A DNA stretch of 32,000 nucleotides from a bacterium (GTDB lineage Bacteria > Actinomycetota > Thermoleophilia > RBG-16-64-13). Shown here piece after piece: positions 1,826 through 26,224 of this stretch. The position numbers and the translations under genes are program-made. The stretch is taken from assembly GCA_043801935.1 (NCBI GenBank), contig JAZDLO010000130.1, positions 12,051-44,050 on the forward strand, read 5' to 3'. Each line of letters begins with the position of its first letter. Position 1 is the first letter of the stretch. The notes beneath the pieces are model-generated. The model worked only from the letters and a program-made list of their open reading frames with translations. It was not told the DNA's origin and made no database searches.

Positions 1826-1914
1826 TCGCGTACGAGGCACCGCCGGTTCGACTAGGCTCGCAGGCCCGCCTGGTCGCCATCGTTTCGCATCCCTTTTCAC
1901 ATCTACGGACTGGT

Positions 1915-1938
1915 GTAGTACTACAATCTTTAGTAGAA
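1915..1938. promoter_or_regulatory. Second candidate BlaI-family operator, upstream of the DUF2318-like/ABC operon
   Basis: Perfect 10-nt palindrome GTAGTACTAC (1915-1924), followed by AATCTTTA and GTAGAA (1933-1938). It shares TACTACAA with the site at 318-325 and overlaps a good -10 hexamer, TACAAT (1922-1927). Confidence 0.45.
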
Positions 1939-2013
1939 TGTGGGTGCCGTCGTCGGTGACCGAGTCCCGGCGCAGCGAAGGTTTCCAACAAATGGTATCC
2001 ATCGGGGGTCGAT

Positions 2014-2652
2014 ATGTCGCAGCGGAAGCGGCCGGCGAGACCGGCAGAACAGCGAAGCAAGCGTGAACGATTCGAAGAAGCCGGCAGGTTCCCGGTGATG
2101 AAGGTCGCAGCTGCCGGTGTCGTGGTGGTCGTGATCGCCGTAGCAGCGGTCGTGGGGATCATGCTCTACAACAATTCGACGGAAGCGGGCGGACCGGTGG
2201 TGTCGGCGGGAGGCGCCGACTACGCCAAGACTTCTTTGGAGATGTCTCCGCTCACGTCGGCTCAGACGACCGGAGCCGGAACGGTCACGCTGTCCCTCGC
2301 CGAGGTGACCAGTGCGAAGATAGGCGGTTTCGTCTACTCCCGGTCCGCGCCCATGCCTGCGGGCTTTGACTCCGTCGAAGGGAACGGCCTGCCGATTCTT
2401 GCGTATGTCGCGCCCAGCGGGCGGCTTGTCGTAGCAACCTCCATGTGTGAGCCCTGCCGCTCATACGATTTTCACATCGAGGGCGGCCAGCTCGTCTGCA
2501 ACTCTTGTTTCACGCGCTGGGATCTCAACACCCTTAAGGGAGTCAGTGGTGGCTGCCTCGACTTCCCGCCCGAGGAAGTGATCACGACCGTGCAGGGTGA
2601 TGTCATCGAGATCCAGCAATCGGAACTAGAGGCTTGGGCCCCGCGGATCTAG
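2014..2652 (+). CDS. Membrane-anchored Cys4 protein, DUF2318-like (predicted Fe-S/metal-binding accessory protein of FtsX-type ABC systems)
   Basis: N-terminal basic segment plus one TM helix (VAAAGVVVVVIAVAAVVGIML). The extracytoplasmic domain carries CEPC..(15 aa)..CNSC followed by GVSGGC. From memory this matches the CxxC...CxxC...GGC pattern of DUF2318. RBS GGGGG lies 5-6 nt before ATG 2014. Confidence 0.55.
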   Translation: MSQRKRPARPAEQRSKRERFEEAGRFPVMKVAAAGVVVVVIAVAAVVGIMLYNNSTEAGGPVVSAGGADYAKTSLEMSPLTSAQTTGAGTVTLSLAEVTSAKIGGFVYSRSAPMPAGFDSVEGNGLPILAYVAPSGRLVVATSMCEPCRSYDFHIEGGQLVCNSCFTRWDLNTLKGVSGGCLDFPPEEVITTVQGDVIEIQQSELEAWAPRI

Positions 2653-2709
2653 CGGCTTGACGAGCCGGAGACCATCGCCCTCGCCGGGGCGATCGTCGGC
2701 AAACAGCCA

Positions 2710-3867
2710 ATGCGCGTCTCGCGAATAGCGTTCAGAAACGTGCGTTGCCACCCGGCGCGCACGGCGCTATTGGTGGTCATGATCATGTGTGTGGTGGCCG
2801 TCGTCGCCACCCTCTTCCTGGTCACCCGGAGCGCAGACAGCGATTTGGCCAACAAGGTAGACGAGTACGGGGCGAATATCGCCATCGTGCCCCGATCCGA
2901 ACAGCTCCCCTTGGTCTACGGGGGGATACGCGTGGGTGGCCTCACGTACGATGTGAAGCCTCTGAGCATGGGTGAGGTGGCGCTGATCCGGACGATCACG
3001 AACAAGGAGAACATAAACCGGGTGGCCCCCAAACTGCTTCAGCTGACCGAGATCGACGGGACCCGTCTGATGGCGGTCGGCGTGGTGTGGGAGGAAGAGC
3101 TGGCTATCAAGAAGTGGTGGAGGATCGAGGGGTCGGCGCCCACCTCGCCGGAGGAGGTCCTGCTCGGGGCCAGGGCAGCGGAACGTCTGGACCTGAGAGC
3201 GGGGGCGAGCCTCGAACTGAAAGGCGAACGATTTCGCGTCTCAGGCGTTCTCGACCCCACCGGAGGCCAAGAGGATGACGTCGTTTTCATGGATCTCGCC
3301 GCGGCTCAGGGGCTCTGGGACCGAGCAGGCCAGGTGAGCTTCGTGGAGGTCTCCGCTTGGTGCAGTTCGTGTCCCATCGAGACCATAAGCGCGCAGATAG
3401 CGACCCTTCTACCGAATGCCCGGGTGTCCGCGCTGCGGAAGGCCATGGAGCCTCGGGAGCTGCTCGTCGGCCAGTTCAAGTTATTCAGCATCTTGCTTTC
3501 GGCCTTCATGGTGTTGGCGGGGAGCATGATCGTGCTCACGTCGACCCTAGGCCGCGTGCGCGAGCGCAAGAGCGAGATAGGTGTGTTCCGCGCGCTCGGC
3601 TATCGGCGGAAACACATCCTCGAGATCGTTCTCCTCGAGAATCTCATAGTGGCCGTCTTCGCGGCGGCCGTGGGGGTCGCGGTCGCATGGGCAGCTGCCG
3701 GGCCGGTCGCCCGGTCGGTCGCGGGGGTGGTCACCGCCACGGCCCCCGGCCCGCTGCTCCTCCTAGCCGCCGTCGCGGCGGCGGTGCTGATGGTCGTACT
3801 CGCCAGCCTCTATCCGGCCTGGCGGGCGTCCCGCCTGAGCCCTCTGCTGGCCCTTAGGCGTGTGTAG
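2710..3867 (+). CDS. ABC transporter permease, FtsX/MacB family (4 TM, large extracytoplasmic loop)
   Basis: N-terminal RIAFRNVRCHPARTALLVVMI, a long loop, three C-terminal TM helices, and the terminal LYPAWRASRLSPLLALRRV signature typical of FtsX-domain permeases. Confidence 0.85.
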   Translation: MRVSRIAFRNVRCHPARTALLVVMIMCVVAVVATLFLVTRSADSDLANKVDEYGANIAIVPRSEQLPLVYGGIRVGGLTYDVKPLSMGEVALIRTITNKENINRVAPKLLQLTEIDGTRLMAVGVVWEEELAIKKWWRIEGSAPTSPEEVLLGARAAERLDLRAGASLELKGERFRVSGVLDPTGGQEDDVVFMDLAAAQGLWDRAGQVSFVEVSAWCSSCPIETISAQIATLLPNARVSALRKAMEPRELLVGQFKLFSILLSAFMVLAGSMIVLTSTLGRVRERKSEIGVFRALGYRRKHILEIVLLENLIVAVFAAAVGVAVAWAAAGPVARSVAGVVTATAPGPLLLLAAVAAAVLMVVLASLYPAWRASRLSPLLALRRV

Positions 3868-8481: not shown

Positions 8482-8611
8482 AACCGAGACTTCGACGGAC
8501 TCTCGGCCAGTCGCGCGCGCGCCCACGCCCGGCGTGGCCTGAGTTGCCGCAGCGGGGAGTCCGGCCTTGGCGGTCCGCGGGCCCTCCTGCTATCATCTCC
8601 ACCCCTGACGT

Positions 8612-8683
8612 GGGCGATTAGCTCAGGGGGAGAGCGCTGTCTTCACACGGCAGAAGTCACTGGTTCAAATCCAGTATCGCCCA
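8612..8683 (+). tRNA. tRNA-Val (anticodon CAC)
   Basis: Manual cloverleaf: acceptor GGGCGAT/ATCGCCC, D-arm GCTC-AGGGGGA-GAGC, anticodon arm CTGTC-TTCACAC-GGCAG (anticodon CAC), variable loop AAGTC, T-arm ACTGG-TTCAAAT-CCAGT, discriminator A. CCA is not encoded. Confidence 0.9.
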
Positions 8684-8870
8684 CTTCTCTCGCATCTCAG
8701 CACCTCCCGGCCCTTGCGCGGCCGAGGTCCGTGCCAACGCGTTCTTGCTGTGTCTTGGCTCCTGTGCTACGGGCACGGACCGGTTGTCCACATGAGCTTG
8801 TCCCATTTCCTTGTAGGACATTGTCGGCCATTCCTGTAAGACATCATCCACTCGATATGTCGGCCGGTTG

Positions 8871-8912
8871 TTGACATAGCCCGCTTGCTTGTGTATTTAT
8901 GTACATGTCATG
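8871..8912 (+). promoter_or_regulatory. Conserved promoter/operator element, copy A (upstream of the HdrA/Qmo-like/Mvh operon)
   Basis: TTGACA (8871-8876), 17-nt spacer, TATTTA (8894-8899), then TATGTACATGTCATG. Identical at 38/42 positions to 23897-23938. Confidence 0.7.
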
Positions 8913-9222
8913 AGCGGCAAAGGTCTGGGCCGGCGGCCCCGTCCGCGCCGCGCGACCCGTGCCAGGGGGTACGATGCGGGCACAAACGTCAGCGTTGCCT
9001 CGAACCGGACCATACGGATCGTGACGTCCGTGCCGGCCCCCGATCCTCGCGACAAACCTTTTCTGCGCAGTCTCCAGCTTGCCTGTGCTCGTGCCGACCG
9101 CGATCGGTTGCGGCCAGACTTCGGACTCTTCCTGCAACCGGCGAGAGCATCGCGCTCGCCTGCACCAACGTCGAGGCCTACGGTACTACTACTCTAGGCC
9201 AACCGCTCGAACGGGGGGACAT

Positions 9223-11031
9223 ATGAGGACCGGCGTGTTCATTTGCCAGGTGGGTGGGGGCGACCCGGAGGCTGTAGACCTCCATGGCGTCGAGGCGTAC
9301 GCCGCCAATCTCCCCGACGTCGAATCGGTCAGGAATCTCGGTGTGCTTCCGGCTATCGACCCACAGACCCTCGCCGCCGAGTTCGCTCGCGACCGGCTGG
9401 AGCGGGTCGTGATAGCAGGCGATTCCCCCGGCTTCTTCAAGCCGGCCTTTGCCAGTGCCATGCGGCTCGCCGGCGGCGACCCCGACGAGGTCCGCTTGGC
9501 CTCCTTCCGTCAACACGGGGCGCTGTCGGGGATGGGTGCCCCTAGAGCGAAGTCCATCCTGGCTTGCGCGGTGCTGGGCGTACCGTTCCCTCTGGCCGCG
9601 GTCCCCGATACGACGGCGACCCATCCCGGCACGCTCATCATCGGGGCCGGGGTGGCCGGTATCCAGGCGGCGCTTGAGATCGCCGACGCGGGCAAACAGG
9701 TCTATCTGGTGGAGCGGACGGCCACCATCGGCGGGCACATGGCCATGTTCGACAAGACCTTTCCTACCCTGGACTGCGCCGCCTGCATCCTCACCCCCAA
9801 GATGGTGGCGGTGGGTCAGCACGAGATGATCGATCTCTTGACCTATGCCGAGGTCGAGGACATCAGCGGCTCGCCGGGGGCCTACCGGGCCAAGATCCGC
9901 AAGAAGGCCCGTCACGTGGACCTCGCCGCGTGTGTGGCCTGCAACGCGTGCACCGAGAGCTGTCCGGGCCGGGCATCCAGTGAGTTCGACTCGGGGATCG
10001 CCGAGCGCCGGTCTATCTTCATCCCCTTCCCTCAGGCGGTGCCTAACGCCTACGTGCTGGACGAGGCCTCCTGCCTCTACTTCCAGAGCGGGGGCGAGCG
10101 CTGCGGTGTGTGCGCCAAGAAATGCCCCAAGGAGTGCATCGATCTGGCCCAGAAGGATGAACTCATCGAGATACAAGTCGGCAACATCATCCTGGCCACC
10201 GGGTACGACATCTACGACGCCGCCAAGATCGAGCGCTACGGATATGGGACATTCCCCAACGTGCTTACCGCTCTCGAGTTCGAGCGCATGACCAACGCCT
10301 CGGGTCCCACCGGCGGCAAGATCGTCGTCAAGACGAAGAAGCACAACAAGCGCAAGAAAGTGGACGAATGGGTGCTCGACCCCGCGGGGAGTCCGCCGCG
10401 CAGCGTCGCCATCATCCATTGCGTCGGCTCCCGCGACGCCCAGCACAACGCGTACTGTTCGCGCGTCTGCTGCATGTACTCGCTGAAGTTCGCCCACCTG
10501 GTCAAGGAGAAGCTACCGGAGGCCATCTGCTACGAGTACTACATCGACATGCGCGCCTTCGGCAAGGGATATGAGGAGTTCGCCGACCGGATCGTGGCGG
10601 AGGGCACCTTTGTGGTGCGAGGACGCACCGCGCGCATCGTCGAGGTCGACGGGCAGATCGTCATCAAGGGCGAGGACATCCTCAGCGACAAGATGGTCGA
10701 CGCCCCGGTAGACATGGTCATCCTGGCCGTCGGCCTGGTTCCCGCGCGAGGCACCGAGCGGCTGGCCGAGATGCTCGGTATAGCCCGGGATCACGATGGC
10801 TGGTTCGGAGAGTTGGACTACAACTCCGATCCCACCGACACCGAACGGGGAGGGGTGTTCGTGGCAGGGGCCTGCCAGGCCCCCAAGGACATCCCCGACA
10901 CCGTCGCCCAGGCCTCGGCGGTCGCGGCCGGGGTCCTCAAGAGCATCACCACCGGTCGGGGATCGGACAGCCGAGCGGAGCTCTCTCTCAGTGACATCGA
11001 AGCGCGTGCGCGCAACCTCGTCCGGGTCTAA
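9223..11031 (+). CDS. hdrA: HdrA-like FAD/FeS flavoprotein, paralogue 1 (Cys-less N-terminal domain, inserted 2x[4Fe-4S] ferredoxin domain, no C-terminal ferredoxin domain)
   Basis: Dinucleotide fold LIIGAGVAGIQAALEIADAGKQVYLVERTATIGGHM. HdrA hallmark motifs FPTLDCAACILTPKM and HCVGSRD..YCSRVCCMYSLKFA. Inserted CVACNACTESCP and CGVCAKKCPKEC. ATG 9223 lies 5 nt after GGGGGG; the ORF-track start at 9079 has no support. Confidence 0.85.
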   Translation: MRTGVFICQVGGGDPEAVDLHGVEAYAANLPDVESVRNLGVLPAIDPQTLAAEFARDRLERVVIAGDSPGFFKPAFASAMRLAGGDPDEVRLASFRQHGALSGMGAPRAKSILACAVLGVPFPLAAVPDTTATHPGTLIIGAGVAGIQAALEIADAGKQVYLVERTATIGGHMAMFDKTFPTLDCAACILTPKMVAVGQHEMIDLLTYAEVEDISGSPGAYRAKIRKKARHVDLAACVACNACTESCPGRASSEFDSGIAERRSIFIPFPQAVPNAYVLDEASCLYFQSGGERCGVCAKKCPKECIDLAQKDELIEIQVGNIILATGYDIYDAAKIERYGYGTFPNVLTALEFERMTNASGPTGGKIVVKTKKHNKRKKVDEWVLDPAGSPPRSVAIIHCVGSRDAQHNAYCSRVCCMYSLKFAHLVKEKLPEAICYEYYIDMRAFGKGYEEFADRIVAEGTFVVRGRTARIVEVDGQIVIKGEDILSDKMVDAPVDMVILAVGLVPARGTERLAEMLGIARDHDGWFGELDYNSDPTDTERGGVFVAGACQAPKDIPDTVAQASAVAAGVLKSITTGRGSDSRAELSLSDIEARARNLVRV

Positions 11032-11042
11032 GGAGGATCAGC

Positions 11043-12188
11043 ATGGCGATCCGCGTCAATCCCAAACTGATCGACGATCTGGAGGTCTTCGGAGCGGAGG
11101 ACGTCTCCAACTGCTACCACTGCGGTAATTGCTCCGCCGTGTGTCCCTTCTCCAAGGAGCCGTATATCTTCCCCCGCCGATCCATGCGCTACCTACAGAT
11201 GGGACTGGAGAAGAAGCTGGAAGGCAGCCTGGAGCCGTGGCTCTGCTACTACTGCGGTGAATGCTCCGACGACTGTCCCCGTGACGCCGAGCCGGGCGAG
11301 ACCATGATGAGCCTGCGCCGCTGGTTGACCAGCCGGTACGACTTCACCGGCATCTCCCGGCTGTTCTACCGCTCGGGCAAGCTCGAGCTGATCATCATCA
11401 TCGCGGCCGCTCTGCTCACCGGTCTGGGGTTCGTGCTGTGGGGGATGTCGAAGGGAAGCATCCAGAGCTATGACGGTCCCAACGCCTTCCTGCCCCACGC
11501 GAGCATCCACTGGTTCGACTGGGGCCTCGCCGGCGTCCTCTTGGCGCTCCTGCTCACGAACTGCGCCCGCATGTGGTGGTTCACGATAGGGCGCGATAGG
11601 GATATCCATGTGCCCTTTACGCTGTACATACGAAAGGCGTTCCTCCTTCCATTGCACTTCTTCACCCAGAAACGCTACGCGAAGTGCGAGCGAAAGCGTC
11701 CTTGGCTGATCCACCTGGCTCTCATGCTGAGCTACGTGATCATGCTGGTGTTGATCATGTTCTTCCTCGGATTCATGCAGGGAGGGCCGGCGATCGATTG
11801 GCGGGTGCATGTGTTCGGCTACATCGCCACGGTGGGTCTGTTGGGGACCACGATCTTCGCCTTGCACGGACGCCTGCGCAAGACCGAGACCCAGTACAAG
11901 CATTCGCACGAGACGGATTGGATCTTTCTCGTCCTGCTCATCTTCGTGGCCTTCACCGGCATCCTGCAGCACATCATGCACCGGACCGGGTTGGACGTGG
12001 CGGCGAACGTGGTCTATGTGGTGCACCTGATGGGGGTAGTGCCCATGTTGGGGTTGGAGGTACCCTTCAGCAAGTGGTCGCACCTCGCCTACCGTCCTTT
12101 GGCCATGTACTTCGCCGACGTGCGGGCCGAGGCCCTGTCGGCGACCGTTGAAGCGCAGCGTCCCGTCCCAGCCCCTCAGACCACGTAG
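11043..12188 (+). CDS. QmoC-like subunit: HdrC-type 2x[4Fe-4S] ferredoxin domain fused to a 6-TM NarI/HdrE-like (putative cytochrome b) membrane domain
   Basis: N-terminal CYHCGNCSAVCP and CYYCGECSDDCP. This is followed by six hydrophobic helices carrying conserved-looking His residues (PWLIHLAL, IFALHG, ILQHIMH, VVYVVHLMG) and a terminal FSKWSHLAYRP motif typical of NarI-like proteins. Confidence 0.7.
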   Translation: MAIRVNPKLIDDLEVFGAEDVSNCYHCGNCSAVCPFSKEPYIFPRRSMRYLQMGLEKKLEGSLEPWLCYYCGECSDDCPRDAEPGETMMSLRRWLTSRYDFTGISRLFYRSGKLELIIIIAAALLTGLGFVLWGMSKGSIQSYDGPNAFLPHASIHWFDWGLAGVLLALLLTNCARMWWFTIGRDRDIHVPFTLYIRKAFLLPLHFFTQKRYAKCERKRPWLIHLALMLSYVIMLVLIMFFLGFMQGGPAIDWRVHVFGYIATVGLLGTTIFALHGRLRKTETQYKHSHETDWIFLVLLIFVAFTGILQHIMHRTGLDVAANVVYVVHLMGVVPMLGLEVPFSKWSHLAYRPLAMYFADVRAEALSATVEAQRPVPAPQTT

Positions 12189-12198
12189 CCGGAGCGTC

Positions 12199-13923
12199 AT
12201 GATGGATGAAAGAAAGATCGGCGTCTACGTATGCAACTGCGGTACCAACATCGCAAAGGTGGTCGACTGCGACGCGGTGGCTGAGTTCGCGTTGGGGCAG
12301 CCCGGGGTGGCAGTGGCCAAGTCGTACAAGTACATGTGTTCCAATCCGGGGCAGGAGATGATCGTCGAGGACATCAAGGCTCAGGGGCTGGACCGGGTAG
12401 TGGTGGCCGCCTGTAGCCCCCGGATGCACGAGCCCACGTTCCGTAAGGCCTTGGAGACCGCCGGGATCAACCCTTATTTCGTGGAGATGGCCAATATCCG
12501 CGAGCAGTGCAGCTGGGTGCACGACGACCCGGGGGTGGCGACGGACAAGGCGCGGGCGCTGACGCTCGCCGCCGTCCGGCGAGTGGCCTATCACGAACCC
12601 CTGGAGCGGCGCTCGGTAGAGATGAACTCTAACGTTCTGGTCATCGGGGGAGGCATGGTCGGCATGACCGCTGCCCTCGAACTGGCCGGTGGAGGGAGCC
12701 GGGTGTATCTCGTGGAGCGTCTAGACCACCTGGGCGGCAACGTGGCCCGGGTGGATCTCACCGCTCCCTATCTAGATTCTGCCCGGGACATGGTTACGGC
12801 CCTGGTGACGCGAACGACCGAGCATCCGCGCATCGAGGTGCTGCTCAACTCCGAGGTGACCGAAGTCAAGGGTTACGTCGGGAACTTCACATCCGTGGTC
12901 CAGACCATTTGGGGCGACCAGATAACCATGAGCGAGTTCCAGATGGGCAACGTGGTGGTCGCCACGGGGTACAAGGAGTTCGACGCCTCCCGGGTGACCC
13001 ACTACGGTTACGGCAAGCTGCCCAACGTCATCACTTCGTTCGAGCTCGAGAAGATGTTGCGGGCAGGGCGCGTCGAGACCAAAGAGGGTAAACCACCGCA
13101 GTATGTGGCCATCATCCACTGCGTGGGCAGCCGAAGTAAGGAGTTCCACGCCTACTGCTCGCGGGTCTGCTGCATGACTGCGCTCAAGTATACCCGGGAG
13201 GTTAAGTCCGCGCTTCCCAAGTGTTACGTGAGCGACGTCTACATCGACATGCATGCCTTCGGCAAAGGCCATGAGGACTTCTACCGGGGGACGTCCGAGG
13301 CCAAGACGCTGTTTCTCATGTACGGCAAGAACGATCACCCGGTGATCCGCAAGGCTGATCCCAAGGACGATTGCGAGATGCTCATCGAGGTGAACGAGAA
13401 GCTCTCGGGTGAGGTCATCGAGATCCCGGCCGACCTGGTGATCCTCATGGTGGGCATGGAAGCGCGGGAGGATTCGGAAGCGGTCGCCCGGCTGGTGAAC
13501 ATCAGCCGCGACAAAGACGGATGGTTCATCGAGAGCCATCCCAAGCTCGACCCGGTGGCCACGACCACCGAGGGCATCTACATCGCCGGTGCGTGCGCCG
13601 CGCCGAAGGACATCCCCGACTCGGTGGCGCAGGCCCGCGCCGCCGCCGGGCGCATCCTGGCCCGGACCCTCCGGGGCACCATCGATATCGACGCGGTGTT
13701 CGCCGAGGTCGACGAGGAGAAATGCTCGGGCTGCCGGATATGCAACGACCTCTGCCCCTACTCGGCAATAGACTACGACGACGAGAAGAAGCGCAGTAAC
13801 GTTATCAGCGCCCTCTGCAAGGCCTGCGGCGCCTGCGTGGCCGCCTGCCCCTCCAGCGCCATCACCGCCCGGCACTTCACCGACCAGCAGATATTCGCCG
13901 AGATCGAGGGGGTGCTGGCATGA
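12199..13923 (+). CDS. hdrA: HdrA-like FAD/FeS flavoprotein, paralogue 2 (Cys-rich N-terminal domain, no inserted ferredoxin domain, C-terminal 2x[4Fe-4S] ferredoxin domain)
   Basis: N-terminal IGVYVCNCGTNI..YMCSNPGQ..VVAACSPRMHE..IREQCSWVH. FAD fold VLVIGGGMVGMTAALELAGGGSRVYLVE. HCVGSRS..YCSRVCCMTALKY. C-terminal CSGCRICNDLCP and CKACGACVAACP. ATG 12199 follows GGAG; the ORF-track TTG at 12148 overlaps the upstream gene. Confidence 0.85.
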   Translation: MMDERKIGVYVCNCGTNIAKVVDCDAVAEFALGQPGVAVAKSYKYMCSNPGQEMIVEDIKAQGLDRVVVAACSPRMHEPTFRKALETAGINPYFVEMANIREQCSWVHDDPGVATDKARALTLAAVRRVAYHEPLERRSVEMNSNVLVIGGGMVGMTAALELAGGGSRVYLVERLDHLGGNVARVDLTAPYLDSARDMVTALVTRTTEHPRIEVLLNSEVTEVKGYVGNFTSVVQTIWGDQITMSEFQMGNVVVATGYKEFDASRVTHYGYGKLPNVITSFELEKMLRAGRVETKEGKPPQYVAIIHCVGSRSKEFHAYCSRVCCMTALKYTREVKSALPKCYVSDVYIDMHAFGKGHEDFYRGTSEAKTLFLMYGKNDHPVIRKADPKDDCEMLIEVNEKLSGEVIEIPADLVILMVGMEAREDSEAVARLVNISRDKDGWFIESHPKLDPVATTTEGIYIAGACAAPKDIPDSVAQARAAAGRILARTLRGTIDIDAVFAEVDEEKCSGCRICNDLCPYSAIDYDDEKKRSNVISALCKACGACVAACPSSAITARHFTDQQIFAEIEGVLA

Positions 13924-14354
13924 GCTTCGAGCCCAATATCGTCGGATTCCTGTGCAACTGGTGCTCGTACACGGGAGCCGATCTGGCAGGCACCAGCCGG
14001 ATCCACTACGCTCCGAACGTGAAGGTCATCCGGGTCATGTGTACCGCCCGCATCGATCCCACGTTCGTGCTCAAAGCCTTACGGGACGGGGCCGACGGGG
14101 TTCTCATCTGCGGATGCCACCCGGGGGACTGCCACTACTCGGAAGGCAACTACAAGATGATGCGCCGATACCCCCTGCTCAAGAAGATGCTCGCAGACTT
14201 CGGCATCGCAGAGGCCAGAGTGCGCCTCGAGTGGGTGAGCGCGAGCGAAGGCCAGCATTTTGCCGACATCGTGAACGATATGACCCAGCGCATCCGGGAA
14301 TTGGGACCGAGCCCCATACGGGCGGCCCTAGCCACTGACATGGCGGAGAGGTGA
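13920..14354 (+). CDS. mvhD: Methyl-viologen-reducing hydrogenase delta subunit (MvhD/FlpD family)
   Basis: IVGFLCNWCSYTGADLAG...VIRVMCTARIDP..LICGCHPGDCHY matches the MvhD Cys pattern. ATGA overlap with the preceding HdrA-like gene. Confidence 0.9.
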   Translation: MSFEPNIVGFLCNWCSYTGADLAGTSRIHYAPNVKVIRVMCTARIDPTFVLKALRDGADGVLICGCHPGDCHYSEGNYKMMRRYPLLKKMLADFGIAEARVRLEWVSASEGQHFADIVNDMTQRIRELGPSPIRAALATDMAER

Positions 14355-14357
14355 GTC

Positions 14358-15320
14358 GTGGCTGAGAAACTGCAGATCGCACTATATTGGGGCGCGGCCT
14401 GCGGCGGCTGCGACGTGGCGGTCTTGGACACCAACGAGTTCATCCTCGACGTGGCGGCCGTAGCCGACATCCGCCTGTGGCCCATCGCCGTGGACGGCAA
14501 ATACAAAGACGTCGAGGCCATGGAGGACGGGGAGCTCGATCTCGCCATCTTCAATGGAGCTGTGCGCAACTCGGAGAACGAGCACATCGCCCGGTTGCTG
14601 CGCCAGAAGAGCAAGCTCCTCATCGCCTTTGGAGCCTGCGCCTACATGGGCGGGATCCCCGGCCTGGCGAATCTCACCTCACGGGAGAAGATCTTCGACA
14701 CGGCTTACGTCCACAACCCCTCCATCGAGCCCGGCAGCAGCGTGGTGCCCCAACCCGAGAGCCGGGTGGATGGCAAGGTGCTCGACATCCCCCGGTTCTA
14801 CCGGCGAGTGTACCGCTTGGACCACGTGGTCGACGTCGACTACTACATCCCCGGCTGCCCACCCCAACCCGACCAAGTCAAGGGCGCCCTGCTCGCCGTC
14901 GTGAAGGGGGAGCTGCCCGCCAAGGGCTCCGTGGTGGGGGCGTACGAGCATGCTCTCTGCGAGGATTGCCCGCGCACCAGGAACGAGAAGAAGATCACCC
15001 GCTTCTACCGGCCCTGGGAGATCATGGCCGATCCCGAGACGTGCTTTTTGGAACAGGGCATACTCTGCGCAGGAGTGGCCACCCGCTCCGGATGCGGGGT
15101 GCGCTGTCCCAAGAGCGACATCCCCTGTCGCGGTTGCTATGGCCCGCCGCCGGGGGTCTTGGACCAGGGCGCCAAACTGGCGAGCGCGGTCTCCTCGATC
15201 GTCGACAGCAAGGACCCGGAGGAAATCCAGACGATCCTGGAAGGGCTGCCCGACTTCACCGGCTTCGCCTACCGGTACGGCGTAGCCTCATCGCTGCTGC
15301 AAAGGAGCTACCGGCCATGA
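14358..15320 (+). CDS. mvhG: [NiFe] hydrogenase small subunit, MvhG-like (group 3c context)
   Basis: N-terminal YWGAACGGCDVAVLD, then GACAYMGGIPG, IPGCPPQPDQV, and a distal Cys cluster region CEDCPR..CFLEQGILCAGVATRSGCGVRCPKSDIPCRGCYGP. GTG start 6 nt after GGAGAGG. Confidence 0.88.
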   Translation: MAEKLQIALYWGAACGGCDVAVLDTNEFILDVAAVADIRLWPIAVDGKYKDVEAMEDGELDLAIFNGAVRNSENEHIARLLRQKSKLLIAFGACAYMGGIPGLANLTSREKIFDTAYVHNPSIEPGSSVVPQPESRVDGKVLDIPRFYRRVYRLDHVVDVDYYIPGCPPQPDQVKGALLAVVKGELPAKGSVVGAYEHALCEDCPRTRNEKKITRFYRPWEIMADPETCFLEQGILCAGVATRSGCGVRCPKSDIPCRGCYGPPPGVLDQGAKLASAVSSIVDSKDPEEIQTILEGLPDFTGFAYRYGVASSLLQRSYRP

Positions 15321-16780
15321 CGAGAACGATCACCATCGACCCGATCACCCGCCTCGAAGGCCACGGGAAGATCTCCATCTTCCTCGACGATGCCGGGGCG
15401 GTGGAGGACTGCTACTTCCAGATCCCCGAGCTCCGCGGGTTCGAGCAGTTCGTCGTGGGCCGTCCTATCGAGGAGTTGCCCCGCATCGTCACGCGTATCT
15501 GCGGCGTGTGCCCGGCGAGCCATCACATGGCGAGCGCCAAGGCGGTGGACGGCTGCTTCAACAACGAGGTGGCGCCCCTCGCGCACAAGCTGCGCGACAT
15601 GTACTACAACGCTCATTACATACACAGCCATACGGCCCATTTCTACGCCTTGGCCGCTCCCGACTTCGTCCTCGGCCCTGATGCCGACCCGGCGGTCCGC
15701 AACATCCTGGGAGTGGTGGCCAAGGTAGGTCTTGAGATCGGGGGGCAGGTGATCCGCATCCGGGGGCTGGCCCAGGAGGTCCAGCGGATCATCGGCGGTC
15801 GGAACACCCAGGACATCTGGTGCCTCCCCGGAGGGGTGGCCAAGAGGCTCAAGGAGGAGGAGCTCGAGCAGATCAAGCCTTGGGTTGGCGAGATGTACGA
15901 GTTCACCCAGTTCAGCCTGCAGCTGTTCCGCGACGTGGTGCTGGGAAATCCGGGCTATGTCGATCTGATCTTGAACGGACCCTTTACTCTCGACGTCCAC
16001 AATATGGGCCTGGTGGACGAGAACAACGCCCCCAATTTCTACCACGGCAAGGTCCGGGTCGTGGACTACGAGGGCAAGGAGATATGCAAGTACGAAGCCA
16101 AGGACTACGCGGAGTACGTCGCCGAGCACGTAGAGCCGTGGTCGTATCTGAAATTCCCCTATCTCAAGAAGCGCGGCTGGAAAGGCTTCGTGGAGGGGAT
16201 CGACTCGAGCCTCTATTGCGCCACGCCCCTCTCCCGGCTCAACGTCGCCGACAGGATGGCCACTCCCAAAGCCCAGGAGGCCTTTGAGGAGATGTACGGG
16301 GTGCTGGGCGCCCATCCGTGCCGCGCGCTGTTGGCCCAGCACTGGGCTCGGCTGGTGGAGATGGTCCAGAACGCGGAGACGCTCCAGGGCTATTGCGACG
16401 ACCCGGAGATAACCGGCGAGCAGGTACGCGTCATCCCGCAGACCATAAGCGGCGAGGGCTTTGGGATAGTGGAGGCCATGCGCGGGACCCTGACCCATCA
16501 CTACACCTGCGATGAGCGCGGTATCTGCACCAGCGCGAACCTGATCGTGGGCACGACGAACAACAACGCACCTATCCAGATGGTGACCAAGAAGGTGGCA
16601 CAGGCTCTGATCAAACCGGGGATAGAGCCCGACCAAGGTCTGCTGAACATGGTGGAGATGGGTTTCCGCGCCTTCGATCCATGCTACAGTTGCGCCACCC
16701 ACAGCCTTGGGCAGATGCCCCTTGAAGCCGTAATCTACAAAGGTGGCGAGCTGCACAGGGCCATCAAACGGAACTGCTGA
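15317..16780 (+). CDS. mvhA: [NiFe] hydrogenase large subunit, MvhA-like
   Basis: ITIDPITRLEGHGKI, N-terminal Ni-binding RICGVCPASHH, and C-terminal DPCYSCATH followed by a 25-aa extension (a substrate for a maturation endopeptidase). ATGA overlap with the small subunit gene. Confidence 0.93.
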   Translation: MTRTITIDPITRLEGHGKISIFLDDAGAVEDCYFQIPELRGFEQFVVGRPIEELPRIVTRICGVCPASHHMASAKAVDGCFNNEVAPLAHKLRDMYYNAHYIHSHTAHFYALAAPDFVLGPDADPAVRNILGVVAKVGLEIGGQVIRIRGLAQEVQRIIGGRNTQDIWCLPGGVAKRLKEEELEQIKPWVGEMYEFTQFSLQLFRDVVLGNPGYVDLILNGPFTLDVHNMGLVDENNAPNFYHGKVRVVDYEGKEICKYEAKDYAEYVAEHVEPWSYLKFPYLKKRGWKGFVEGIDSSLYCATPLSRLNVADRMATPKAQEAFEEMYGVLGAHPCRALLAQHWARLVEMVQNAETLQGYCDDPEITGEQVRVIPQTISGEGFGIVEAMRGTLTHHYTCDERGICTSANLIVGTTNNNAPIQMVTKKVAQALIKPGIEPDQGLLNMVEMGFRAFDPCYSCATHSLGQMPLEAVIYKGGELHRAIKRNC

Positions 16781-16796
16781 GGAAAGGCGAATCCAG

Positions 16797-17483
16797 ATGG
16801 TTGACGTTGCCCTTCTTAGCCACTCGAAGCACTTCGCGGGCCTGAGTAAACGAGAGCTGGAGCAAGTGGCCGATATTGCCGTGCTGGAAAAGCAGCCGGC
16901 CGGCCATCAAGTGATCGAGGAGAACGAGACGGCTTCAGACCTGTACCTGGTCTCCGAGGGAAGGGTCGCCGTCAAGATGAGGAGCCGCACCGGCCAGGAA
17001 GTGGTAATAGACGAGCTCGGTCCCGGCTCCCTGTTCGGGTGGTCGGCCGTATTGGACGACCAGACGTTCACAGCGGCTGTTTCCACCGTCGAGCCGTCGA
17101 TGCTCGTCGCGATCGACGGCCCCCGTCTCAGACAGCTTTTCCAGGAGTATCCGGCCATCGCCTCCCACTTGGTCACCAGCATCGCCATCGTGATCTCGAG
17201 CCGGCTCGCCCATCTGAGGTCCAAGCTGGCGGACGAGCCTTTCGCCCCGGAGTGGCTCATGTCACCTACCCAGGCCGGGCCCCTCGGCGGACCGTGCCTA
17301 TCACCGACGAGCGATATGCGGAAAATGGCCTGTCCTGCATGCGCCACCGTCAACGGGCCCTTCGGCGTTGTGAACGAGACGGCACAATATCGGTGCCGCA
17401 GCTGCGGGATGGTCTTCTACGCCCCGGCCTGCTGTGAGACTCCGGAAACTGAGTCCGACAAAGCGAAGGGCGGCGTCGCCTAA
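16797..17483 (+). CDS. Cyclic-nucleotide-binding-domain (CAP effector-domain) protein with C-terminal Cys-rich zinc-ribbon; no HTH
   Basis: Beta-barrel cNMP-domain pattern (FAGLSKRELEQVA..GHQVIEENETASDLYLVSEGRVAVKM..LGPGSLFGWSAVL..). The C-terminus reads CPAC-(17 aa)-CRSC..ACC. RBS GAGGAAAGG lies upstream of ATG 16797, which is 17 nt after the mvhA stop. Confidence 0.7.
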   Translation: MVDVALLSHSKHFAGLSKRELEQVADIAVLEKQPAGHQVIEENETASDLYLVSEGRVAVKMRSRTGQEVVIDELGPGSLFGWSAVLDDQTFTAAVSTVEPSMLVAIDGPRLRQLFQEYPAIASHLVTSIAIVISSRLAHLRSKLADEPFAPEWLMSPTQAGPLGGPCLSPTSDMRKMACPACATVNGPFGVVNETAQYRCRSCGMVFYAPACCETPETESDKAKGGVA

Positions 17484-17604
17484 GCGGCGGAGCCTCGTCT
17501 CGCTTTGGCGACAACAGGAGTTACACGTACGCCCGGGAACGGTTAGAGGCCCGTGGCTGAAGGCTTGGCCGCCCGAAGGCCGTGTACTTCGCGCCGCGGC
17601 CCTC

Positions 17605-18090
17605 TTACTGTCGCAGCAGTCGGAGCGCCTCGTGTATGATCTGGCGCGAATAGGTGGGGTAGGCGGACTCCAGTTCGGCCGTCATGCTCTCCGAGAATAT
17701 GGCGTTGTCGACGATCTCCACAGCGAAGATGTGCACGTTCTCCGGAGACGGTATGTGGGCCCCCATCCGCCGGCCCAGCTCGAGCGCCGTCGTGAAGTTG
17801 GCGTCATGCACGTTGGTGAGATTCATGGTCTCTCTGAAGGACTCCCCGGTCATGGCGTGCCACGCCCCGGGCTGTGCCCCCGTGGTCTTTATGGAGTCGA
17901 AGACGATGAGGCGGTCGTAGCCGGTCACCAGGTCAAGGAGGTTGAGCCCGCCTACGGAGCAGTCTTCAAAGATGTGGACGTCGGTCCGGTCCTTCAGTTC
18001 GGTGCTGAAGTCCTTCGCCAGTCTTATCCCTACTGCGTCATCGCAAAGGATGGGATTTCCCATGCCGAGAATGATGGTCCGTGTCGTCAT
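17605..18090 (-). CDS. [NiFe] hydrogenase maturation endopeptidase (HyaD/HybD/FrhD family)
   Basis: MTTRTIILGMGNPILCDDAVGIRLA...LIVFDSIKT...NVHDANF matches the GxGNxxxxDDGxG and D...H metal-ligand pattern of the family. The ORF-track start at 18192 is trimmed to ATG 18090. Confidence 0.85.
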   Translation of the reverse strand: MTTRTIILGMGNPILCDDAVGIRLAKDFSTELKDRTDVHIFEDCSVGGLNLLDLVTGYDRLIVFDSIKTTGAQPGAWHAMTGESFRETMNLTNVHDANFTTALELGRRMGAHIPSPENVHIFAVEIVDNAIFSESMTAELESAYPTYSRQIIHEALRLLRQ

Positions 18091-18175
18091 CTCTGCCTGT
18101 ATCGCACATCGCGCGGCCGCGCGCAAGGGGGAAGGCCGACTTCTGAGAGGCGGCGGATGGTAAGGGGTCGCAAGC

Positions 18176-18520
18176 TTGCATGAGTTGAGCATCGCCCAGG
18201 CTCTTGTGGATCAAGTCGAGGAAGTAAGGACGTCCAACGGCGGCGGCCGTGTTCTCGCCGCCCAGGTCCGGATAGGGACGTGGCATCTGATCGTGCCCGA
18301 GATCCTTGCCGGTTACTACGAACTGCTCGTGCGCGGAACACCCCTGGAGGGCTCGCGCGTGGCTATCGAGACCGTGGACGCGAGGGCCCGCTGTAATAAG
18401 TGCAACAGGATCTTTCCCGTGCAAGAAGCGTGGGTCGTCTGTCCGGATTGCGCGTCGCTCGACGCTTGTCTTTTGAGCGGGAAGGAATTGAATCTCGTCA
18501 GCGTGGAAATGGAGGATTGA
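18176..18520 (+). CDS. hypA: Hydrogenase nickel-insertion protein HypA
   Basis: N-terminal MHELSIA plus zinc site CNKC...CPDC. 114 aa. Confidence 0.92.
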   Translation: MHELSIAQALVDQVEEVRTSNGGGRVLAAQVRIGTWHLIVPEILAGYYELLVRGTPLEGSRVAIETVDARARCNKCNRIFPVQEAWVVCPDCASLDACLLSGKELNLVSVEMED

Positions 18521-22804: not shown

Positions 22805-23811
22805 CCGTCGAGCGCGTGCTGCTGGCGCACGGCGGCGGCGGCCGGCTGACCAAAGAGCTGATCGAGCAGGTCTTTCTGCCCTGCCTCGGTAACCCCGCTC
22901 TCAACCCCCTCGATGACGCCGCCCTTCTCGACCTGGAAGCGGGTGACTGGGCTTTCACCACCGATAGCTACGTGGTCTCGCCGCTGTTCTTCCCCGGCGG
23001 GGACATCGGCAAGCTCGCCGTGTGCGGCACGGTCAACGACCTGGCTGTCAAAGGCGCCCGCCCCCTCTGGATGAGTCTCGGGCTGGTGTTGGAGGAGGGC
23101 CTCCCCCTGGCCGACCTGCGCCGCGTGGCGGAGTCGATAGGATCTTGGACGGGGTCGGTGGGGGTGGCTGTGGTCGCCGGCGACACCAAAGTCGTGGAGA
23201 GAGGGCGATGCGACGGGCTCTACGTCAACACTGCCGGGATCGGGAAGGTCGTCACTTCCTTGCCCCTGGGACCCGACAGCATCAGGCCGGGCGACTCGGT
23301 GATCGTCAGCGGATATCTGGGCGATCACGGGATAGCGGTCTTGAGCCGGCGCTCCGGGATCTCCTTCTCCCCGGAGGTCTCGAGTGACTGCGCGCCTCTT
23401 TGGGGTCTGGTGAGCACGGTCCTCGCCACCGGCCGCACCGTGCATGCGATGCGCGATCTGACCAGGGGCGGCCTGGCGGGGGCGCTGTGCGACCTGGCCG
23501 AGAGCTCGGGACTGGGGCTGCGTATCTGGGAAGAGAAGCTGCCGGTCCGCAGCGTTGTCAGGGGAGCCTGCAGCCTGCTCGGTTTCGACCCCCTCGCCAT
23601 CGCGAACGAGGGCAACATGGTCGTTTTCTGCCCGGCCGCCGACGCCCCGGACGTTCTGAGCGCGATGAAGCGCCACCCCGTGGGCCGATGGGCGGAGATC
23701 GTCGGCGACGTACGCGAAGAGCCCAAGAGAACGGTGCTTATGGTGAGCAGCATCGGGGGCGAGCGGGTGGTGGACATGCCCACGGGAGAGGATCTTCCCA
23801 GGATCTGCTGA
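22801..23811 (+). CDS. hypE: Hydrogenase maturation carbamoyl dehydratase HypE
   Basis: An AIR-synthase-like fold protein ending in the HypE signature PRIC. ATGA overlap with hypD. The ORF-track start at 22516 is rejected. Confidence 0.92.
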   Translation: MTVERVLLAHGGGGRLTKELIEQVFLPCLGNPALNPLDDAALLDLEAGDWAFTTDSYVVSPLFFPGGDIGKLAVCGTVNDLAVKGARPLWMSLGLVLEEGLPLADLRRVAESIGSWTGSVGVAVVAGDTKVVERGRCDGLYVNTAGIGKVVTSLPLGPDSIRPGDSVIVSGYLGDHGIAVLSRRSGISFSPEVSSDCAPLWGLVSTVLATGRTVHAMRDLTRGGLAGALCDLAESSGLGLRIWEEKLPVRSVVRGACSLLGFDPLAIANEGNMVVFCPAADAPDVLSAMKRHPVGRWAEIVGDVREEPKRTVLMVSSIGGERVVDMPTGEDLPRIC

Positions 23812-23896
23812 GCCGCGACGGCTCTGTTGTTCGGTCTTACACTCGGGGCAAGAACCTAGCTTTGTAGGATAAGACCTACACAGACGTAAGTATATG

Positions 23897-23938
23897 TTGA
23901 CATACCCATCTTGCTTGTGTATTCATGTACATGTCATG
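23897..23938 (+). promoter_or_regulatory. Conserved promoter/operator element, copy B (upstream of the receiver-hydCBA operon)
   Basis: TTGACA (23897-23902), 17-nt spacer, TATTCA (23920-23925), and the perfect 10-nt palindrome CATGTACATG (23924-23933). Identical at 38/42 positions to 8871-8912. Confidence 0.7.
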
Positions 23939-24080
23939 GGGAAAGGATCTGCCGAATCGGGACGGCTCTGTCGCGCACAGGCAGTATGCGCCATGACTCG
24001 CGAAAGGCCATTCGACAGTCGGGCGCGAGAGCTACCGAGCGTTCGTCTGGGCGGGGTTGATTCTAAAGAAGGAGAGTGTA

Positions 24081-26188: not shown

Positions 26189-26224
26189 CAGGCGGTCATC
26201 CACCTGTAGCAAGGAAACGAGAAT

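Follow-up and report, generated by a model that had tools for sequence, protein, structure and literature searches.

Why should two hydrogenase operons, one of the [NiFe] and one of the [FeFe] type, be preceded by nearly the same short piece of DNA? In the 32,000-nt window (the whole stretch of DNA that was analysed), the first of these is a Qmo/Hdr-Mvh operon with hdrA/qmoA-like, qmoC-like, hdrA2, mvhD, mvhG and mvhA genes and a gene for a protein with a cNMP-binding domain and a zinc ribbon, and the second comprises a receiver-only response regulator, hydC/nuoE-like, hydB/nuoF-like and hydA ([FeFe] hydrogenase) genes. The element lies upstream of the first gene of both operons and is co-oriented with it, just as the preliminary description had placed it. 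A repeat finder aligned 8869-8912 with 23895-23938 at 40 of 44 positions (91%), and the 38 of 42 identities reported earlier for 8871-8912 and 23897-23938 hold, both sequences being as quoted. When the window was searched with the 29-nt core pattern allowing up to three mismatches, only these two sites matched, against 0.00 expected from 100 dinucleotide-preserving shuffles. We put the probability at roughly two in three (0.65) that the element belongs to a duplicated promoter-plus-operator module, plausibly a device for co-regulation by a regulator whose nature we infer below.

A larger regulatory module, roughly 100-145 nt long, has this element as its core; copy A of the module precedes the [NiFe] operon and copy B the [FeFe] operon (Table 1). 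True homology between the two extends upstream of the core, through three boxes of the TGTAGGA / TAGGA..CC type that are helically phased before the -35 hexamer and for about 36 nt further, so that it covers about 105-145 nt, although only with gaps and at low identity outside the core. The additional similarity claimed for the downstream side ((G)CAAAGG-TCTG(G)GCC against GGAAAGGATCTGCC) turned out to be at chance level, with a local-alignment z of about 0 against shuffles, and of the profiles built from the A and B leaders neither finds the other.

Table 1. Coordinates of the two module copies and their surroundings in the window.
Feature	Position	Strand	Remarks
Module A box 1, TGTAGGAC	8812-8819	+	59 nt upstream of -35; degenerate in L082
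TGTAAGAC in module A box 2	starts at 8835	+	
Module A box 2, 16-mer TAAGACATCATCCACT	8837-8852	+	18 nt upstream of -35
Module A box 3, TGTCGGCC	8858-8865	+	13 nt upstream of -35
Module A -35 hexamer TTGACA	8871-8876	+	
Module A spacer, 17 nt	8877-8893	+	partly conserved; 3′ end TTGC..GTG invariant
Module A atypical -10-like heptamer TATTTAT	8894-8900	+	hexamer TATTTA, final base A, not T
Palindrome ATGTACAT and conserved stretch to GTCATG	8899-8912	+	around the putative transcription start
[NiFe] operon leader, ~315 nt	8913-9222	+	between core and ATG at 9223
[NiFe] Qmo/Hdr-Mvh operon	9223-17483	+	Pfam and NCBIfam matches; start codon from sequence
Left direct repeat, 28 nt	23800-23827	+	last 12 nt of hypE and terminator-like hairpin (site at 23810-23824)
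Module B insert, ~116 nt	23828-23943	+	36 nt A-flank, boxes, core
Module B box 1 dyad, GTAGGATAAGACCTAC	23864-23879	+	perfect GTAGG-N6-CCTAC
Module B fused box 2/3, CGTAAGTA	23885-23892	+	12 nt upstream of -35
Module B core	23897-23938	+	TTGACA 23897-23902, 17-nt spacer, TATTCAT 23920-23926, CATGTACATG 23924-23933, GTCATG
Right direct repeat, 28 nt	23944-23971	+	non-coding remnant of hypE 3′ end
Ancestral hypE-receiver spacer, now [FeFe] leader	23972-24080	+	conserved in lineages with and without the insert
Receiver-HydCBA [FeFe] operon	24081-28180	+	Pfam matches; GTG start

A comparison with the upstream regions of relatives, as the preliminary description had suggested, yielded eight module copies from six related Thermoleophilia/Gaiellales-like lineages, which share the invariant pattern TTGA.A....C...TTGC..GTG..T..ATGT. 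The boxes of these copies are found at -57/-59, -34/-36 and -12/-13 from the -35 hexamer (reference offsets -59, -36 and -13). Box 1 type sequences occur at -57 to -59 in the full-length copies, and in L086, L001 and window copy B they form the dyad GTAGG-N6-CCTAC, which has only four sites in 1.5 Mb of related loci, all of them upstream of hdrA1 or of the receiver-hyd operon. Box 3, TGT(C/A)(G/A)G, is present at -12/-13 in 8/8 copies, and in L100, as assembled, the module directly precedes receiver-hydCB genes.

From its hexamers, the module would be a promoter of the housekeeping-sigma type, with a perfect -35, a 17-nt spacer and a weak, atypical -10, TAT(T/C)NAT. The TTGACA, the 17-nt spacing, the TATTTA/TATTCA and the palindrome (ATGTACAT in copy A and CATGTACATG in copy B) are all present as previously described, and the first three recur, as TTGACA, 17 nt and TAT..A, in nearly every copy: the -35 is TTGACA in seven of the eight and TTGATA in one, and the distance from it to TAT..A is 17 nt throughout. 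What is missing from this promoter is the final T of the -10 hexamer. The variants are TATTTA, TATTCA, TATTGA, TATCTA and, in one copy, ATTTTA, with A always as the sixth base, and no A-N3-T exists in the -10 region of five of the eight copies, both window copies included. The absence of this near-universal T explains why a sigma-70 scan calls neither window site; the tRNA-Val promoter in the window, TTGGCG-18-TATCAT, is canonical in the same scan. The spacer had been called conserved, which is correct for the invariant TTGC..GTG at its 3′ end but not for its 5′ part, which varies among the copies.

Two further observations bear on the promoter reading. In L082 the core ends only 36 nt before the ATG, leaving no room for another promoter, and the assignment of the -35 hexamer is supported by distant relatives with canonical -10 boxes, in which the same operator-to-(-35) geometry is found. 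Judging from hexamer spacing, transcription would start near 8905-8907 in module A and at about 23931 in module B. A sigma-54 promoter was rejected because the GG/GC spacing is wrong when checked by hand; Actinobacteria are generally without RpoN. An outer inverted repeat, TGACAT...ATGTCA, was likewise discarded, since the changes seen in L001 and L087 are not compensatory.

The palindrome over the -10/+1 region could instead point to repression, with CATGTACATG/TGTCATG serving as the operator of a Rex-like or other repressor that blocks RNA polymerase at both operons. Such a site would fit the perfect 10-bp palindrome of copy B, 8 bp of which are found in copy A, as well as the conservation of the ATGTACAT stretch in six of the eight copies, and hydrogenase genes of Firmicutes are known to be under Rex control (PMC6391272). 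The sequence itself, however, does not agree with any of these factors. The Rex-type dyad to which it had been likened, the 18-bp palindrome TTGTGAANNNNTTCACAA, has no match within three mismatches anywhere in the window, and the best manual alignment leaves 4/14 mismatches, with a second half-site that is not conserved; nor do the CRP/FNR dyads TGTGA-N6-TCACA and TTGAT-N4-ATCAA match at the sites within two mismatches, and no Rex gene was seen in the window. A palindrome of 8-10 bp is also short for a dimeric regulator. Moreover, the suggestion of a conserved operator fails in two of the eight copies, the palindrome being broken in L086 (TGTATGTG) and largely gone in L100 (TGTGTCG), although the -35, the spacer and TATTCA are intact in both. 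We therefore consider a repressor site at this position unlikely, and return to the reading of the core as a promoter with its operator boxes upstream.

The way in which a second copy of this promoter-plus-operator module came to lie before the [FeFe] operon can be followed in the relatives. The direct repeats on its two sides, 23800-23827 and 23944-23971, are identical at 24 of 28 positions (alignment z = 10.4), and those of L001, read from the sequence, at 27 of 30. L088/L089 and L095 are without the insert and have a single repeat unit at this place (empty sites). The left part of the insert resembles the region just upstream of module A box 1 in L095 (23 of 30 positions identical, z = 6.5), and module B lacks one 23-nt box unit that L001 and L087 have. 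In the alignment of the hypE-receiver spacer, the empty-site lineages have TAAGCT or TAAAAT, which are canonical -10-like sequences, where the insert-bearing lineages have CATGAC or TGTGAC; the window itself has CATGAC. The genes downstream of the two copies, [FeFe] and [NiFe], are unrelated, and the empty sites, the flanking repeats and the donor flank kept in the insert are evidence that the segment moved without its gene.

Taken together, these alignments establish the duplication and insertion structure of copy B and identify it as an insertion derived from the [NiFe] promoter region. The native site of the module would be downstream of tRNA-Val and before the Qmo/Hdr-Mvh [NiFe] operon, and a copy that began about 36 nt before box 1 and ended with GTCATG would have been inserted between hypE and the receiver gene, with duplication of 28-30 nt of the target. 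This insert appears to have replaced an older canonical promoter, which the sister lineages still keep. In L087, the closest relative, copy B shows 8/42 differences, against a divergence of only 2.7% at the four-fold sites of the adjacent genes; by this comparison, the L087 copy is either mosaic or decaying.

If the two copies resembled each other merely because the duplication was recent, the similarity would be a trace of that event without any function. That copy B was demonstrably inserted and derives from the A region, and that copy B of L087 has diverged at the neutral rate, would both be expected in this case. The rates of change elsewhere, however, speak for selection. Orthologues of the copy A core differ at 2, 5 and 8 of 42 positions, compared with 0.19, 0.62 and 0.59 of the four-fold degenerate sites of the adjacent hdrA in the same orthologue pairs (P = 0.01, 3e-11 and 1e-7, respectively), and conservation is much lower in the stretches that separate the boxes. 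These divergences demonstrate purifying selection on the core at the sequence level. With both copies present in lineages whose four-fold sites are about 60% apart, a functionless trace would hardly leave the cores of orthologues only 3-8/42 apart, nor the paralogous cores 4/42 apart in two genomes; divergence is far greater in the flanks that were copied along with them. A similarity without function is thus very unlikely, and a selected promoter module remains the reading that we prefer.

The direct repeats flanking copy B are also what a transposed element would have left behind, and families of putative mobile promoters have been described (PMC3575422), so that the element might belong to a family of dispersed repeats or miniature mobile elements in which the promoter-like hexamers are incidental. 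Its distribution and its ends argue against this. No further copies were found in about 1.5 Mb of related loci, no more than two being seen per genome, always before these two operons, and the exact 21-mer was absent from 185,579 species genomes and had a single match, in one metagenome contig, among 241 million metagenome records. There was no match in plasmid and phage collections, and no terminal inverted repeats are present at the insert ends 23828 and 23943. The 28-30-bp duplication greatly exceeds the short target duplications that known insertion sequences leave. As far as could be seen, the element is not a dispersed repeat, and we regard a mobile element family as highly improbable.

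The last and least credible explanation is that the element acts as RNA, as a structured leader, a small RNA or a leaderless small ORF common to both transcripts; while both operons have long leaders (~315 and ~150 nt) and the conserved stretch runs a few bases past the putative start and contains ATG triplets, no Rfam family other than tRNA-Val reaches the gathering score, folding z-scores are -1.3 to +0.6 on either strand, the consensus fold of seven copies is without any compensatory pair and its covariation term is positive, the possible reading frames are not the same from copy to copy (ATG TCA TGA in A), and about 270 nt of leader A are dispensable in its closest relative, L082, where they are missing. 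The first ~115 nt of leader A are conserved with L086 and L098; alifold gave no covariation support for structure in leader A or leader B. The small ORFs over the element (8885-9226, 8844-9137 on the minus strand, and 23894-24169) have no Pfam match, and their frames are not conserved.

Within the promoter-plus-operator reading, which factor would bind the boxes? The best candidate, suggested by the analysis of distant relatives, is a response regulator of the NarL/LuxR family. At least nine distant loci have a 16-bp palindrome and, exactly 17 nt downstream of it, TTGAC(G/C), which is followed after 16 nt by TAGTAT/TACTAT. This palindrome, TAGG(G/A)T-N4-ACCCTA (TAGGGTnnnnACCCTA), stands before the same [NiFe] operon, and the box 2 16-mer of the module is in the same position, 17-18 nt upstream of TTGACA. 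The dyad TAGG-N6-8-CCTA is enriched 70-fold upstream of hdrA1, and a matrix of the palindrome applied to 1.56 Mb at a threshold of ≥13 bits gave 27 matches, 24 of them directly upstream of hdrA1 and three elsewhere (L013:1688, L024:1736 and L052:4898). The strict dyad was found in 12/16 loci with a divergent HisKA_3 kinase and REC-GerE regulator, and in 3/21 loci without this system (1/19 when two contigs too short for the upstream genes are left out). These counts demonstrate an association, in the relatives' sequences, of the operator with the two-component system, and in related lineages the genes of a putative NarL/LuxR regulator and HisKA_3 kinase divergently adjoin the [NiFe] operon together with the predicted operator, L005 carrying the pair at 1913-3711.

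For the lineage of the window, the correspondence is less direct. On the matrix of the 16-bp palindrome, the boxes of the window itself have poor scores (A -3.5, B -1.0), and the box 1 dyad of copy B has 2 nt less spacing than the palindrome. The box 2 orthologue of L098, TAGGACATTTACCATA, scores 15.7 bits, with the 99th percentile at 8.7. Thus, the link to a NarL-type operator rests on position, half-site similarity and one good orthologue (L098). A search of the 32-kb window and of about 130 kb of this lineage's DNA gave no GerE-type regulator, and the divergent REC-GerE regulators of the relatives reach no curated equivalog in NCBIfam. The boxes are presumably still bound in the window's lineage.

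Other proteins encoded nearby were considered as the box-binding factor. The cNMP-binding zinc-ribbon protein has no helix-turn-helix domain; it occurs in lineages without the module and is absent beside strong palindromes (L005, L071), so nothing specific ties it to the module. The CopY/BlaI-type repressor (375-782) was also rejected, having an operator of its own with another arrangement, TACTAC-N5-GTAGT, beside a divergent HMA gene; TTGTAGGG, near this repressor, is not conserved in L098. The H2-sensor relay genes beside the operons have no DNA-binding output domain within the window.

Under the preferred reading, the two hydrogenase operons most likely have promoters of one kind, under the control of a single box-binding factor. 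What was copied is the entire module, upstream boxes included, and not the core alone; this makes co-regulation plausible, and the two enzymes are probably switched on and off together. A bolder version can be imagined, to which we assign little credence as a whole. It supposes that the module is a self-contained cassette, copied in a transposase-independent manner with a target duplication of about 30 bp, that its "stretched" -10, TAT(T/C)NAT, with the key bases five, not four, apart, is silent without a dedicated factor, and that this factor, maybe of the NarL type and fed by the [FeFe]-type H2-sensor relay, is a master switch for bifurcating hydrogenases in these actinobacteria.

If the preferred reading is true, the insertion placed an electron-bifurcating [FeFe] hydrogenase under the control circuit that serves a Qmo/Hdr-Mvh [NiFe] hydrogenase, in uncultured Thermoleophilia of soil and sediment. 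The regulon that it predicts, consisting of a NarL/LuxR-type two-component system and a TAGG(G/A)T-N4-ACCCTA operator, would serve group-3c-like hydrogenase operons across the class. In a literature search that was not systematic, we found no regulator described for the Qmo/Hdr-Mvh operon in Thermoleophilia. The mechanism of a shared promoter and operator is itself of a familiar kind, and the case will mainly interest those who work on hydrogen metabolism or on how bacterial regulation evolves.

Several known systems invite comparison. In Ralstonia eutropha, hydrogenase operons are controlled by HoxBC-HoxJ-HoxA, an H2-sensing regulatory hydrogenase acting with a two-component system. A hydrogenase-like sensor fused to a histidine kinase is likewise encoded beside the operons of the window (29455-31497, minus strand). 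In contrast to the regulatory hydrogenase that senses H2 in R. eutropha (PMC5665086), the window's sensor belongs to the [FeFe] type, its relay is without DNA-binding output in the window, the promoter is not of the sigma-54 type, and nothing ties the relay to the module. Rex operators, with the consensus TTGTGAANNNNTTCACAA, precede hydrogenase genes in Firmicutes (PMC6391272). Like them, the module has a site over hydrogenase promoters, with a half-site, TTGTGTA, that resembles TTGTGAA, but it is without the second half-site and has 4/14 mismatches in total.

At NarL- or DosR-controlled promoters, the palindromic operator lies upstream of the -35. The TAGGGT-N4-ACCCTA of the relatives agrees with this arrangement, lying upstream at a constant distance of 17 nt from the -35 and beside a HisKA_3/REC-GerE pair, and box 2 of the module is in the same position with the TAGG half-site kept. 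Half-site and spacing differ from both the NarL heptamer arrangement and the DosR box, with GGG-N6-CCC here and GGG-N8-CCC in the DosR box, and the lineage of the window has a degenerate palindrome and no regulator gene close by.

The closest framework for the duplication is promoter reuse by putative mobile promoters, as surveyed by Matus-Garcia, Nijveen and van Passel in 2012 (PMC3575422). As in such cases, upstream DNA that is ~91% identical precedes two non-homologous operons of one genome, and there is direct evidence for the insertion of one copy, to which neither a transposase nor an insertion sequence is attached. The ungapped match of 44 nt is shorter than the ≥50 nt (at ≥80% identity) used in that survey (PMC3575422), and copy A is farther from the start codon than its window of -150 to -50. 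The present case goes beyond the survey in that the donor, the empty site, the target duplication and the decay and loss of the older, replaced promoter can all be read from relatives, which, if the reading is true, would make it an unusually well-documented natural promoter capture.

The two near-identical elements quoted in the preliminary description are present in the window, with 38 of 42 positions identical, and a repeat finder extends their match (family D7) to 44 nt at 91% identity (8869-8912 and 23895-23938). A 29-nt core pattern, with up to three mismatches allowed, is matched only by these two copies, none being expected from 100 dinucleotide-preserving shuffles. From the gene map built with Pfam and NCBIfam scans, it is clear that copies A and B are therefore each upstream of, and directed at, the first gene of an operon, namely the Qmo/Hdr-Mvh [NiFe] and the receiver-HydCBA [FeFe] operon, with leaders of about 315 and 150 nt, respectively. 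The similarity had also been said to continue downstream of the core; this part does not hold, as local alignments of the leaders score at the shuffle mean and the leader profiles miss each other.

Features of the window and the basis of their assignment
Feature	Position	Strand	Basis
Molybdate-type ABC transporter	up to 8481	+	Pfam/NCBIfam
tRNA-Val	8612-8684	+	
Copy A of the element	8871-8912	+	
hdrA/qmoA-like (hdrA1)	9223-11031	+	Pfam/NCBIfam
qmoC-like	11043-12188	+	Pfam/NCBIfam
Second hdrA	12148-13923	+	Pfam/NCBIfam
mvhD, mvhG, mvhA	13920-16780	+	Pfam/NCBIfam
cNMP-binding protein, C-terminal zinc ribbon	16743-17483	+	Pfam/NCBIfam
HycI-like protease	17605-18192	-	Pfam/NCBIfam
hypA, B, F, C, D, E	to 23811	+	Pfam/NCBIfam
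Copy B of the element	23897-23938	+	
Receiver-only response regulator	24081-24464	+	Pfam/NCBIfam
hydC, hydB, hydA ([FeFe])	to 28180	+	Pfam/NCBIfam
Hybrid receiver-kinase	28269-29489	-	Pfam/NCBIfam
[FeFe]-hydrogenase-like sensor fused to histidine kinase	29455-31497	-	Pfam/NCBIfam

The nearest MvhA relatives come from MAGs labelled Gaiellales, Thermoleophilia or Actinomycetota. In the last gene of the Mvh operon, the cNMP-binding domain is followed by a four-cysteine zinc ribbon that replaces the usual helix-turn-helix, and many related loci conserve the gene in the same place (L001-L004, L030, L080, L082, L086, L096 and L097). The gene of the HycI-like maturation protease runs on the minus strand amid a cluster of plus-strand genes, and its 5′ end would overlap the hypA start at 18176. 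The long frame opposite it on the plus strand (17434-18183) is a shadow frame. Direct repeats D2, D3, D4 and D8 (2700-2721-nt spacing; 10305-10925 versus 12939-13646) arise because the two hdrA-like genes are paralogues; they are no separate repeat element. There is also a copper-type unit (3-224, minus; 375-782 and 881-1825, plus), in which an HMA-domain protein and a CopY/BlaI-family repressor are divergently encoded, with an M56/M48 peptidase after the repressor; the intergenic region common to the divergent genes holds the dyad TACTACAAGTGGTAGT, an operator near 315-332, and two such dyads are found in the related contig L098.

Orthologous loci were obtained by protein searches and contig look-ups. 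An exact 21-mer of the element had no match in 185,579 species genomes and matched one contig in the metagenome collection; the plasmid and phage collections gave no match to the element, and profile searches of about 1.5 Mb of fetched loci gave no additional copy. Eight distinct copies from six lineages (~80-91% DNA identity among lineages) were read: copy A in the window, L082, L098/L099 and L086, copy B in the window, L087 and L001, and an A-type copy directly before the receiver-hydCB genes of L100. Since L098 and L001 share one metagenome of origin and meet inside the qmoC-like gene, the A and B copies read from them probably belong to a single organism.

Footprinting across the orthologous upstream regions, a check proposed at the outset, bears out the conservation of the core: the columns TTGA.A....C...TTGC..GTG..T..ATGT are invariant over the eight copies, and the core changes more slowly than four-fold degenerate sites. 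Core A of the window differs from those of L082, L098 and L086 at 2, 5 and 8 of 42 positions, against differences of 0.19, 0.62 and 0.59 at the four-fold sites of hdrA1 (binomial P = 0.01, 3e-11 and 1e-7). The paralogous A and B cores within one genome differ at 4 (window), 4 (L098/L001) and 9 (L082/L087) positions. We regard the repeat as real and, judged from these comparisons, selectively maintained, its similarity reflecting selection and not recency. The exception is copy B of L087, which differs from that of the window at 8 of 42 positions while the four-fold sites of the adjoining receiver and hydC differ by only 2.7%. Between L087 1-190 and window 23850-24030 there are 25 mismatches in the first ~180 nt and then about one per 50 nt through receiver and hydC, with the density falling sharply near window 24030, suggesting either that the L087 contig is mosaic, with a recombination breakpoint, or that its copy B is decaying or changing faster.

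The element is evidently part of a larger module. When the full-length copies are aligned on TTGACA, boxes of the form (T/C/G)GT(A/C)(G/A)G (boxes 1-3) recur at -57/-59, -34/-36 and -12/-13 from the -35 hexamer, with poorly conserved sequence between them; copy B of the window lacks exactly one 23-nt unit, and the phasing is kept. Box 1 is a perfect GTAGG-N6-CCTAC dyad in window B, L001, L086 and L077 (a more distant MAG without the core), four sites in all, with no further one in 1.5 Mb.

Comparison of the flanks indicates that copy B was derived from A and inserted at its present site. A segment made up of the hypE 3′ end (12 nt) and its hairpin (23800-27) is repeated directly 3′ of the core (23944-71), with 24 of 28 positions identical in the window and 27 of 30 in L001 (alignment z = 10.4). 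In L088/L089 and L095, hypE is followed by one such unit only and by the same leader; boxes and core are both missing. In the 36-nt stretch that separates the left repeat from box 1 of B, 23 of 30 positions match the sequence just 5′ of module A box 1 in L095 (z = 6.5, 0/500 shuffles). In module A this sequence continues into the conserved tRNA-Val flank, and the direction of copying is therefore from A to B. An insertion sequence is an unfit source, the target duplication being 28-30 bp and terminal inverted repeats being absent. At one aligned leader position (alignment A3), a canonical-looking TAAGCT or TAAAAT is found in insert-free lineages and CATGAC or TGTGAC in those with the insert, a difference that may mark a promoter replacement.

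The hypE-receiver spacer (window 23972-24080) is conserved in all lineages, including L088 and L095 without the inserted module; it has a predicted hairpin just 5′ of the ribosome-binding site with two compensatory pairs (alignment columns 98-125 and 100-123), overall covariation support being absent. In two short metagenome contigs, L095 (1-470) and L100 (1-610), the tRNA-Val/module-A region is joined straight to the receiver-hydC genes, and the 15-kb [NiFe]-hyp cluster is missing. Their junctions differ: in L095, box 3 abuts the terminal ~110 nt of hypE, and in L100 the break lies within the A leader, which continues as a B-type leader of diverged sequence. Either the [NiFe] cluster was deleted independently in each, or the contigs are chimeric assemblies.

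Several features favour a promoter: the perfect -35 hexamer (TTGATA in one of the eight copies) with its fixed 17-nt spacing, the placement of the L100 module directly before the [FeFe] operon, the operator-to-(-35) architecture of distant relatives, and a core-to-ATG gap of only ~36 nt in L082 (3375-3409). About 270 nt of the window leader (8913-9222) is missing from this closest relative, and most of the long [NiFe] leader is therefore dispensable. On the other hand, the -10 hexamer varies (TATTTA, TATTCA, TATTGA, TATCTA or ATTTTA, the final base always A), and A-N3-T is absent from this region in five of eight copies, both window copies included; copy B of L087 (GATTTTAT) has it. A promoter scanner called neither core, although it called a canonical TTGGCG-18-TATCAT before tRNA-Val. 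This site (8567-8596) has a TG extension, lies 15 nt before tRNA-Val and is also kept in L082, L098 and L100; it can usefully serve as an internal standard of what an ordinary promoter looks like here. The heptamer TAT(T/C)NAT resembles a -10 with one extra base, and a weak, activator-dependent promoter would be expected.

As to the factor, the preliminary description had proposed a Rex-type or CRP/FNR-type dyad; neither the Rex consensus (PMC6391272) nor the CRP and FNR patterns match at the sites. Its ATGTACAT palindrome is present in the window copies but altered in L086 (TGTATGTG) and mostly missing in L100. The idea of co-regulation by one factor survives, although these factor types fail. 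The sensor with its fused HisKA/HATPase, the receiver-HisKA-HATPase hybrid and the receiver-only protein adjoining the operons form a phosphorelay, with no DNA-binding output domain in the window; the module is absent from its own upstream region (31498-31690). In L088 these genes are followed by those of a further receiver of 167 aa, another [FeFe] hydrogenase and a NuoE/F-GltD-like fusion of 1030 aa.

A better candidate, suggested by box position, by half-site similarity and by a single well-matching orthologue, is a NarL/LuxR-type regulator. In the 500-nt regions upstream of hdrA1 (17.7 kb in total), the dyad TAGG-N6-8-CCTA shows a 70-fold enrichment, with 19 of its 24 occurrences in 1.56 Mb, and 24 of 27 matches of at least 13 bits to the TAGG(G/A)T-N4-ACCCTA palindrome matrix lie directly upstream of hdrA1. 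At least nine loci share a fixed geometry of TAGGGTnnnnACCC(T/C)A, 17 nt, TTGAC(G/C) or similar, a 16-nt spacer containing a TAGGG half-site, and TAGTAT or TACTAT; they divergently encode a HisKA_3 kinase and a REC-GerE (NarL/LuxR-family) regulator. The strict dyad occurs in 12 of 16 loci with this pair and in 3 of 21 without it (1 of 19 excluding two contigs too short to show upstream genes). The box 2 16-mer of the module sits 17-18 nt upstream of TTGACA, and that of L098 (TAGGACATTTACCATA) scores 15.7 bits on the palindrome matrix, above the 99th percentile (8.7). Scores of the window boxes are low (-3.5 and -1.0), and ~130 kb of this lineage's DNA showed no GerE regulator, so we only infer this assignment.

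The two-component system divergent from the Qmo/Hdr-Mvh operon (for example, L005 1913-3711 and L035 513-3534, both minus), with an additional GAF-HisKA kinase at some loci, is accompanied by one or two palindromes per locus, the proximal 17 nt upstream of the -35 and the distal ~156 nt further upstream; hdrA1-upstream regions of this group are those of L008, L013, L016, L017, L021-L023, L026, L029, L035, L038 and L039. Together they look like an undescribed hydrogenase regulon in Thermoleophilia. L096, a relative lacking the module, has another palindrome upstream of hdrA1 (9625-9650; TGTGATCC-TGCG-GGATCACA), a candidate operator of a different type for this operon.

Taken together, a duplicated module of putative promoter and operator, giving the two hydrogenase operons a common control, is the best explanation of the repeat. 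No named operator matched the module, which in function would be similar to response-regulator-controlled promoters whose operators lie 5′ of the -35. Among known concepts, promoter reuse by putative mobile promoters (PMC3575422) comes nearest; the present case falls just under the length criterion of that survey and adds to it a donor, an empty site and a target duplication.
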